Positions 7,605-10,550 of a DNA stretch of 32,745 nucleotides are shown one piece after another. Position 1 is the stretch's first letter; every line of letters starts with the position of its first letter. The notes under the pieces were generated by a model. It had not been told where the DNA came from. It did no database searches and saw only the letters and a list, made by a program, of their open reading frames with translations. Origin of the DNA: Basidiobolus ranarum. Its lineage: Eukaryota. The translations under genes were made by a program, and so were the position numbers. Where the stretch lies: assembly GCA_040143965.1 (NCBI GenBank), contig JASJQH010000080.1:1-32745 (forward strand). The letters are read 5' to 3'.

Positions 7605-10550
7605 ATGAGCAAAATACTTGACTCTAGTTACAGCAACTTACTCGCTAGTAAAGATACTAGAGAATTTCCTTCCGATATTTCTCGGTTTTCTCCTAATGAG
7701 TGGATTGAAATTAAGGATCCACAAAGTACTGAGATATATTATGCCAATCCGGTAAGAGTCTTAGTGGATGATTCGTTAGGTATAACATTCTTTATTAACC
7801 CACATTACCCTCTTTAGTTTACTGGAGATTGCGCTAAAACGATACCCGCTAATGCACTCATGTTGGTTTTTTCTCATATATATATTTACCCCTATCTGTT
7901 GGAAGAGTACTTCGAGAGAAATTGGTTCTAATTATCCTTTCCTAGACATCCTAACGATCCTAATGGCGAATGGTGGGAGCTTTATGATGAGCAAAACGAT
8001 TTGAATTATTATTACAATACTCTTTCATGTCAAACTGAATGGATCAGACCTGAAGTCGGACTTATTATACCTTTAGCAGCGATTCAGGTTACTATACTAA
8101 CAAGGTGTCTAGATATACCTACAAGCATCACTAACATGGCATTCAAACCTAATAGAATACTGCTATGGGACGTAGGGTCTCGATGGTATTAGCTAATAGA
8201 AGCTCATTGATTATAGCGGAGAACGTAATAAAAGCTGCAGAGAAAGACAGAAAATCCGGAATATATCCATTATTAAATTTAAACAACAGTCAACATGATG
8301 CAAATAGTGATGAACTTAAGGGAACAACATCGCCACAGGTATACTATATGTTCGTTTACTAGACCATTGCTATATTCTATTTAGTTAACCCATTGCTTAC
8401 TAAGTCGAATCCCAAGCGACAGGATGGTCGCTGGTCAGTATCTACAAGTATTACTGAGACTTCTGAAATCGATGTCAAACGAGTTAGTGAAATTTCTTCA
8501 AGAGTACTAGAAAACTCAGTGACTGTCCAAGAGCCTCAAACAGAAATGTCCCAAGGGCTATCCAGTTCTGGTATTTATTTGTTCTCATATGTATTTTCGT
8601 ATAGTATGAAGTGGCCCTTAGCAAAAGTTATTTATTACAGATACCCCTAATTTTTCCTCATCAAACAATGCCGCAGACATACCAACATATGCTGAAAAAG
8701 AGCAGTTCGTACCTCCTTTAGTGAAAAACGATAGCTATACGTATATATCGTTTCTAACCTGAGAATATTGCCACAATTTAACCTTCTGTCGACTAATTAA
8801 CAACGATATTCTCTTTCTAGTCCCGCCACTCTCCCACCACAGTTATTGGAGGAGATGAATCAGTTTAAAATTGACGGATTTGCTCAAAAGTATTTTTCGG
8901 TTCATAAAAAAGGCCTTTTCCGAAGAAAAATATCTGTGGAGAAACTGTTACAATGGTCCAAGGTAAAATGGTTGCTTAATTAGTGTGACACAACCAATTT
9001 TGTACTGATTGTACTTGTATAGGATTCTTTGAAACAACCGTTACTAGTCTTAAACAAATCGGCGCAGAGAGATGCTCTGAAGTGCTTTAAAAATATCCTT
9101 TGATTTTAGTGAACGAATGGTTTTTATCGCATTTCATCTTTAGCTTTCCTTAACTCTTATCCACTCATTCAAAAAATCATGGGTGATAGAGCTCATATTA
9201 GAGGGTTCACTCCTAATAAAGATACACAATGGTTGCTCGAGAGGGCCATCTCCCTTGGCGAATTGAGAGACGAACTTTACGTGCAACTATGTAAGCAGTT
9301 GACTCATAATCCAAACAGGTAAGAGCAGAGTATGTGTTCAATTGTAGATAGCCGATAATGACATGATTGTCTCTGGATTTACTAGCCAAAGTCTGTTTAA
9401 TGGGTGGCAGCTCATGTGTGTATTCTCGGTGACTTTTCCACCGTCTAAAAATTTCGAGAAATACATGCAAAGCTTCATCAAAGCTCATTTTGATATACAG
9501 CAGAGTAAAATCGATGTTCTTTCTAAACATGCTTACAATAAGCTATTGAAAATTTCCAAGAGTGGACCTCGTGGGAAGGTGCTCACGAGTGAAGAAATCG
9601 AGCAAGCTAAAGTAAACTATATATCACGATAAGGGTTGTATCTGGTTGTTCGATTTTCTAACTCGTTAGTTTTCAGGAATCAGCCTTCCATCCTACTGCT
9701 TTTGGGGAATCTTTGGAGTATGTGATGCAACTACAGGCGCAGACATATCCAGACCTGAAGATCCCTCGAATTCTGTTATTTTTGGCAGAGAGTGTGCTGA
9801 AACTAGATGGCCAAAAGTCTGAGGGCATTTTTCGGCTCTCTGGAGATCCTGAGGCTGCCACTTCATTGGTAAGACTGTCCTTGAGTATTCTTTTAGTTTA
9901 TCGCTCAATCTATCTAACTTATCATTTATTAGCGGTTGAAAATTGAGAAAAGTAGGTTCTTTTATGTACTGGTATTTGTGTGTAACGGATGCTCAAACCT
10001 TTCGTAGATCAATACGATATTCAGGGGATTGCCGATCCTAATGTACCTTCCTCTTTGCTAAAATTCTGGCTTCGTGACTTGGCAGAGCCATTGATTCCTG
10101 CTGAGTTTTAATATCCTTTTTATACATCCTTACTTTATATTTGTCTTCGATGCAACCAGGTGTTTTCCTTAACTGATCTATACTGATTTGTGTATTCGAC
10201 ATGCAGAAGATTCGAAAGAGTCGGTGAAGATTGTTGAACAGCTTCCAGAAATCAATCGAGTTGTTGTTCATTTCATGTTAAATTTTCTTCAGGTAAAATC
10301 AACAATTATCGAGTGCTTTTGAGTGGATTTTAATCATCATATTTAGATGTTCACTACAGAAGAGGCTACTAAACATACGAAGATGACGGTGGCAAACTTA
10401 GCGATGGTGTTTGCTCCCAATTTTCTAAGATGCCCAAGCGAGAATCTAAATGAAATCTTTGAGAAAACTCGACACGAACAAGCATTTGTCAAAACACTCC
10501 TTGAACACATGCAGCCAACGCCAATCATACCATTGAAATCTACTCTTTAG
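7605..10550 (+). CDS. WW + MyTH4 + RhoGAP domain protein (ARHGAP39/Vilse-like); 15 exons, two introns are AT-AC
   Basis: WW motifs [17 protein letters not shown] and [44 protein letters not shown]; MyTH4 [17 protein letters not shown]...[16 protein letters not shown]; Rho[12 protein letters not shown] (arginine finger), [35 protein letters not shown]. Confidence 0.9.
9093..9164 (+). other. U12-type AT-AC intron (72 nt) in the RhoGAP gene
   Basis: 5' end ATATCCTTT, branch site TTCCTTAAC at 9146-9154, 3' end CAC at 9164. Removal gives [15 protein letters not shown] in frame; retention gives an in-frame TGA. Confidence 0.93.
10111..10183 (+). other. U12-type AT-AC intron (73 nt) in the RhoGAP gene
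   Basis: 5' end ATATCCTTT, branch site TTCCTTAAC at 10165-10173, 3' end TAC at 10183. Removal gives [18 protein letters not shown] in frame within the RhoGAP domain. Confidence 0.93.

Follow-up and report, generated by a model that had tools for sequence, protein, structure and literature searches.

Predicted U12-type introns in a WW-MyTH4-RhoGAP gene and a neighbouring Rab6 gene of Basidiobolus ranarum

Genes and introns at the locus

The stretch of DNA considered here, referred to throughout as the window, comprises positions 1 to 32,745 of contig JASJQH010000080.1 of the fungus Basidiobolus ranarum (assembly GCA_040143965.1), and the element in question is a 72-nucleotide (nt) intron, here called intron A, in a gene (K7432_002844) encoding a protein with WW, MyTH4 and RhoGAP domains. 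Motifs, homologous proteins and reading frames combine to suggest that intron A is very probably a bona fide U12-dependent intron with AT-AC termini. Two further introns with signals of the same type lie on the contig, intron B some 1 kilobase (kb) away from intron A in the same gene and intron C in a neighbouring Rab6/Ryh1 GTPase gene. Both B and C, i.e. two of the three predicted U12-type introns, are mis-annotated in the deposited genome, and this is the main new point to emerge from the analysis. U12-type introns thus account for three of the 20 introns of two genes on a 32.7-kb contig, with AT-AC termini in two of the three and two residing in a single gene, although the window was selected because an intron had been flagged there and the local U12-type density is not an unbiased sample.

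Use of an exon of the gene as a query yielded three homologues: P0001, the deposited B. ranarum protein from the window (562 amino acids, 100% identical to the query exon); P0002, a B. ranarum paralogue (K7432_007622, a deposited model of 484 amino acids on a contig of 15280 bases); and P0003, the orthologue from Basidiobolus meristosporus (662 amino acids). Pfam matches were obtained to MyTH4, to RhoGAP and, weakly, to WW, in the order WW, MyTH4, RhoGAP. The MyTH4 match (PF00784) extends over residues 353-456 of P0001 and scores 104.6 bits where the gathering cutoff is 27, whilst solved myosin VIIb MyTH4 structures align with residues 298-455 of P0003 and p50RhoGAP aligns with residues 463-649. 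The junction left by excision of intron A falls between residues 327 and 328 of P0003 (331 and 332 of P0001), which places it within the structural MyTH4 region and 21 residues ahead of the shorter Pfam match.

Intron A in the MyTH4 region

The initial annotation had proposed a U12-type donor at 9093, a branch site 10 nt from an AC end and a reading frame restored by excision, and every one of these elements is present. The donor is ATATCCTTT, the branch-point sequence is TTCCTTAAC and the terminal AC occupies 9163-9164. The intron is flanked by stop-to-stop frames at 9023..9103 and 9113..9322, which share one reading frame with in-frame stops between them, and removal of the 72 nt generates ...K C F K, followed by an isoleucine codon split one base/two bases (a|tc) and then by I Q K I M G D R. 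When P0001, P0002 and P0003 were compared with the window by tblastn there was a clean gap of exactly 24 codons at 9093-9164, and the residues flanking the junction are invariant in the alignment of the three proteins. All stop-free, in-frame GT-AG, GC-AG or AT-AC pairs bridging both exons were enumerated, giving 43 solutions, and 9093-9164 was the sole one to preserve both conserved flanks, the remaining 42 failing to do so. Exact mapping of the deposited P0001 onto the window revealed 12 introns, of which 11 are GT-AG (56-84 nt) and the remaining one is intron A with its AT-AC termini, so that the depositors' model already contains intron A and splices it correctly.

The signals can be set out for all three introns together. 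The U12 5' splice site consensus /[AG]TATCCTT is found at 9093 in A, at 10111 in B and, on the minus strand, at 22028 in C; the U12 branch consensus TCCTTRAY is found at 9146-9154, 10165-10173 and 21968-21961 respectively; and in each case the termini are AT-AC or GT-AG and the frame of a conserved protein is restored. It is the exact match of both motifs and spacing to the U12 consensus that leads to intron A being called U12-type, and its position within the MyTH4 region of a fungal RhoGAP, as originally suggested, is borne out by sequence, homology and domain placement.

Intron B in the RhoGAP domain

The second AT-AC intron of the gene has ATATCCTTT at 10111-10119 and TTCCTTAAC at 10165-10173, after which 10 nt remain, ending in AC at 10182-10183. 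P0003 is continuous across this junction in the tblastn comparison and, out of 29 enumerated solutions, intron B is the only one in which both flanks are preserved. The deposited P0001 ends at 10108 and is followed by a TAA that arises where the final bases of the exon meet the first base of the intron B donor. Splicing of intron B, together with that of a GT-AG intron at 10293-10346, yields the RhoGAP product given in Table 1, whose residues 1-664 align with P0003 (residues 1-660) and are 70% identical to it. Coverage of the RhoGAP profile (PF00620) is limited to positions 10-75 of 148 in the deposited P0001, compared to 10-147 in the orthologue P0003, and the window's last RhoGAP exon matches profile positions 125-147. 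Since the RhoGAP match is full-length only after removal of intron B, its excision would restore the domain. A common origin of A and B by duplication or transposition was considered and rejected, as their interiors are no more alike than shuffled sequences (an alignment score of -11 against a shuffle mean of -4.3, with 491/500 shuffles scoring as high or higher).

The paralogue provides a separate observation. P0002 departs from the conserved sequence after ...EEIEQAK, where the window gene has a GT-AG intron (9612-9676), and the model ends a few residues further on, lacking the RhoGAP domain altogether. It looks like another truncated model.

Intron C in the Rab6/Ryh1 gene

Intron C carries GTATCCTTT at 22028-22020 and TCCTTAAC at 21968-21961, ends in AG and sits just before the last exon of a gene in which four exons have Pfam matches to the Ras-family domain. 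Enumeration gave 52 solutions, and intron C was the only one to produce the tail of the B. meristosporus Rab6 proteins P0017 and P0028; its removal restores a Rab6 C-terminal tail that ends, as in those proteins, in Cys-Ala-Cys. The corrected model of 206 amino acids is 89% identical to P0017 and P0028 from end to end. In contrast, the deposited Ryh1 model (P0004, 191 amino acids) runs through the intron C donor to a stop and is without the C-terminal cysteine motif. The double-cysteine motif at the C-terminus of Rab6 serves for prenylation and membrane anchoring. As full-length conserved proteins need the removal of both B and C, these two introns must be removed.

Relatives of Rab6 were also encountered in assembled public runs. 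Four of these (P0005, P0006, P0013 and P0014) leave the conserved tail where intron C would be expected by homology; the residues beyond that point are unrelated, as though an intron were being read, and in one of the four the residue pattern is compatible with a GTATCC donor. This hints at an intron at the same position in other organisms and is suggestive, but too weak to use. A metagenome scan with Rab6 gave 80 loci with matches of about 3 x 207 nt, which are intronless or resemble complementary DNA; none of the 80 had a donor-branch pair and the scan was uninformative.

Table 1. Coordinates of the two corrected genes, the three predicted U12-type introns and the signals of intron A within the window
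Feature	Position	Strand	Description
WW-MyTH4-RhoGAP gene, corrected coding sequence	7605..10550	+	15 exons, 14 introns (12 GT-AG, 2 AT-AC), 666 amino acids
Intron A	9093..9164	+	72 nt, predicted U12-type AT-AC, phase 1, within MyTH4 region; from sequence, tblastn and P0001 mapping
Intron A 5' splice site ATATCCTTT	9093..9101	+	predicted U11/U6atac recognition motif
Intron A branch-point sequence TTCCTTAAC	9146..9154	+	10 nt (9155-9164) remain before 3' end
Intron B	10111..10183	+	73 nt, predicted U12-type AT-AC, phase 2, mid RhoGAP domain; unspliced in deposited model
Intron C	21940..22028	-	89 nt, GT-AG with U12-type signals, phase 1; unspliced in deposited model
Rab6/Ryh1 GTPase gene, corrected coding sequence	21875..22915	-	6 introns, 206 amino acids, stop 21877-21875

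Pairing of donor and branch motifs

Donor and branch motifs are paired in the window far beyond chance. Each of the three donor motifs is followed on its own strand by TCCTTAAC at a distance of 54-60 nt, whereas 1000 dinucleotide-preserving shuffles contained a mean of 0.05 donor-branch pairs, with at least one pair in 50 of the 1000 and three pairs in none. An RTATCC donor is found in none of the 17 other introns of the RhoGAP and Rab6 genes.

A relaxed scan of the window, in which [AG]TATC[CT] was combined with loose branch motifs within 300 nt, revealed no additional convincing U12-type candidate. A hit at 16181 (minus strand) was rejected because it falls in the exons of ORMDL, and another at 28142 (plus strand) because its coding context is not recognisable. 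TCCTTAAC at 4343-4336 and TTACTTAAC near 3870, both on the minus strand, were likewise rejected, lying as they do within ordinary GTAAAT/GTAATT...AG introns of a mitogen-activated protein (MAP) kinase gene. This Hog1/p38-like gene extends over about 3430-5100 on the minus strand, and the introns concerned are near 4362-4306 and 3909-3848; the presence of U12-like branch motifs in its U2-type introns indicates that such motifs occur there by chance.

Proposed mechanism of removal

What follows is the general model of minor splicing as applied to introns A, B and C. The U11/U12 di-snRNP (small nuclear ribonucleoprotein) would bind the two ends of the intron jointly, U11 at the 5' splice site ATATCCTTT and U12 at the branch sequence TTCCTTAAC, after which U6atac would take the place of U11 at the donor. 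With the branch adenosine some 11 nt from the 3' end, this fixed distance would select AC as the 3' splice site, so that the choice would be made by the short branch distance and not by a polypyrimidine tract. Excision of intron A would then join the split isoleucine codon and restore the conserved MyTH4 peptide. The same machinery would have to remove the twin AT-AC intron B, 1 kb downstream, and would probably also remove the GT-AG U12-type intron C in the neighbouring Rab6 gene.

Introns A and B fit this model in their exact consensus motifs and in the fixed length, 10 nt, of their tail. The branch site of minor introns is usually some 10-15 nt from the 3' splice site. A defined constraint on the distance between the two is described in one recent study (PMC11347168), and a tendency of minor introns to avoid phase 0 has been published; phases 1, 2 and 1 of A, B and C fit that bias. 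On this analysis B. ranarum would possess a working minor spliceosome, a view that is backed by introns B and C and by the minor introns and small nuclear RNAs (snRNAs) of B. meristosporus. We infer both that excision takes place in RNA and that B. ranarum possesses all four minor snRNAs and the proteins that go with them.

A coilin C-terminal Tudor domain (PF23086, E 4.3e-14) was detected in a 403-codon open frame at 17986-19194 (plus strand); the coilin N-terminal domain was not found in the frames upstream of it at E values up to 0.5. Coilin, which is seldom reported in fungi, serves snRNP maturation as the scaffold of the Cajal body.

Alternative explanations

An important consideration in attributing intron A to the minor spliceosome is whether its 72 nt could be removed in some other way, or not at all. 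U2-type AT-AC introns are known in other eukaryotes and intron A is similar in size to the gene's other introns (54-84 nt), both of which would suit a rare non-canonical AT-AC intron handled by the major, U2-dependent spliceosome and telling nothing about a minor one. Its donor, however, is ATATCCTTT and not a U1-like site of the ATAAGT type, a perfect TTCCTTAAC stands at a fixed short distance from the 3' end, the twin intron B has the same geometry, and the shuffles show the donor-branch pairing to be non-random. The sister species B. meristosporus, moreover, has minor snRNAs and hundreds of minor introns, and removal by the major spliceosome is very improbable. It could also be supposed that the 72 nt are retained, the motifs being coincidental and the gene being either a pseudogene or one whose product is truncated at the in-frame stop at 9101-9103. 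Such a supposition draws on the frequency of each U12 motif taken singly, which is no greater than chance. However, all 15 exons keep open frames and align end to end with the 662-amino acid orthologue at the identity given above, a stop at 9101 would leave little of the MyTH4 region and nothing of the RhoGAP domain, and three paired motif sets against 0.05 expected argue against coincidence, with the result that retention is barely credible.

A number of observations nonetheless weigh against the assignment of these introns to the minor spliceosome. Neither motif is enriched in the window, with 3 sites for RTATCCTT against 3.95 expected and 8 for TCCTTRAY against 6.74 expected, and an Rfam scan of all 32,745 nt gave no match at the gathering score. 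The U4atac snRNA of B. meristosporus is only putative, being divergent and below the confidence threshold in PMC11347168, and with a sub-threshold U4atac in the sister species the minor machinery may not be fully canonical. Lastly, the 10 nt that follow the branch motif in both A and B become 21 nt in intron C, about twice as many, and a yeast-like TACTAAC lies in between, 4 nt ahead of the terminal TTAG. For intron C alone this opens the way to a hybrid or U2-type intron, branching at TACTAAC, in which the GTATCC donor and TCCTTAAC are remnants, and the window would then hold two minor introns. Hybrid or minor-like intron classes have been described, in the same source that gives the distance constraint on the minor branch site (PMC11347168). 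Set against this are the exact matches of both U12 signals in intron C, over 9 and 8 nt, and the position of the TACTAAC adenosine, which is only 5 nt from the 3' end compared to about 15-20 nt for the CTAAC-like sites of neighbouring U2-type introns. In addition, the deposited model handled the five GT-AG introns of the Rab6 gene yet missed intron C. A hybrid or U2-type intron C is thus unlikely, and to judge from its signals intron C is probably of the minor type.

Comparison with known minor introns

The classical AT-AC U12-dependent introns of animals and plants were reportedly described by Hall and Padgett in 1994 and by Tarn and Steitz in 1996. Introns A and B resemble them in the ATATCCTT donor, the TCCTTAAC branch near the 3' end, the AC terminus and the non-zero phase, but at 72-73 nt they are very short, as are the U2-type introns around them, and they occur two to a gene, 1 kb apart. 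The order WW, MyTH4, RhoGAP in the host gene is said to be that of animal RhoGAPs of the ARHGAP39 (Vilse/CrossGAP) type. A literature search found no link between ARHGAP39 and 'minor intron', and a metagenome scan with the RhoGAP alignment produced 594 pattern matches and no confirmed relatives.

The closest comparison is with B. meristosporus. Larue and Roy (2023, PMC10639083) give 249 minor introns for this species, or 0.554% of its introns, the highest density in fungi, and Olthof et al. (2024, PMC11347168) give 237. For Ascomycota and Basidiomycota the former report no convincing minor introns (PMC10639083), whilst the latter report high-confidence U11, U12 and U6atac in zoopagomycote lineages (PMC11347168). 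Genes for U11, U12 and U6atac are published for B. meristosporus itself. The novelty implied by the initial annotation was consequently overrated, the high minor-intron density of Basidiobolus having been in print since 2022-2023; minor splicing in the genus is not new, and A, B and C are of a kind already known. The likeness extends to genus and intron kind, and P0003 spans both RhoGAP-gene junctions. The difference is that the window comes from B. ranarum, whereas the literature on Basidiobolus minor or U12 introns, in the portions available, names B. meristosporus, whose minor introns may be listed one by one in supplements or databases. Rhizophagus irregularis is likewise an early-diverging fungus with consensus minor-intron motifs; according to Larue and Roy (2023, PMC10639083) its phases follow the order 1>2>0 and it has all four minor snRNAs, but it belongs to another phylum than Basidiobolus.

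Other genes in the window

The alginate lyase domain PF05426 is spread across three adjacent frames at 23314-24768 (plus strand), with a best E of 5.6e-31 and with profile positions 1-275 covered. Such an enzyme is unusual in fungi, and horizontal gene transfer in Basidiobolus is reportedly the subject of a published paper (PMC7466969). Pfam searches of stop-to-stop frames also identified a malate/lactate dehydrogenase at 1745-2725 (plus), apparently in a single 327-codon frame, a glutamine-dependent NAD synthetase (CN_hydrolase and NAD_synthase) at 11100-14000 (plus), ORMDL at 15700-16410 (minus), Sec61 beta at 25281-25445 (minus) and a weak Forkhead match at 26715-27920 (plus).

Consequences for annotation and for minor-intron evolution

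It had been anticipated in the initial annotation that gene predictors restricted to GT-AG introns would mis-annotate the RhoGAP gene. This is the case for the gene, in which P0001 stops at the intron B donor, but not for intron A, which P0001 splices with its AT-AC termini; the stumbling of predictors is seen for introns B and C, two out of three, and not for the intron that had been flagged. B. ranarum occasionally causes infections in humans and animals, and its deposited annotation contains a RhoGAP with half its catalytic domain and a Rab6 without its membrane-anchoring cysteine motif.

With B. ranarum, a second species of Basidiobolus offers concrete examples of minor introns at the level of sequence, three of them at this locus. 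Surveys that count annotated introns would miss read-through cases such as B and C, and published minor-intron densities for poorly annotated early-diverging fungi may be underestimates. A more far-reaching idea, and a distinctly unlikely one, is that the minor-intron set of Basidiobolus is larger and more AT-AC-rich than annotation-based surveys report and that it represents in part a lineage-specific gain. The Zoopagomycota ancestor has been reconstructed with a low minor-intron density (PMC10639083), and given the contrast with the highest density in Basidiobolus, under-counted and clustered minor introns would fit either gain or exceptional retention. If this were true, the gain or retention of minor introns in Basidiobolus would be served by a spliceosome with a divergent or replaced U4atac.

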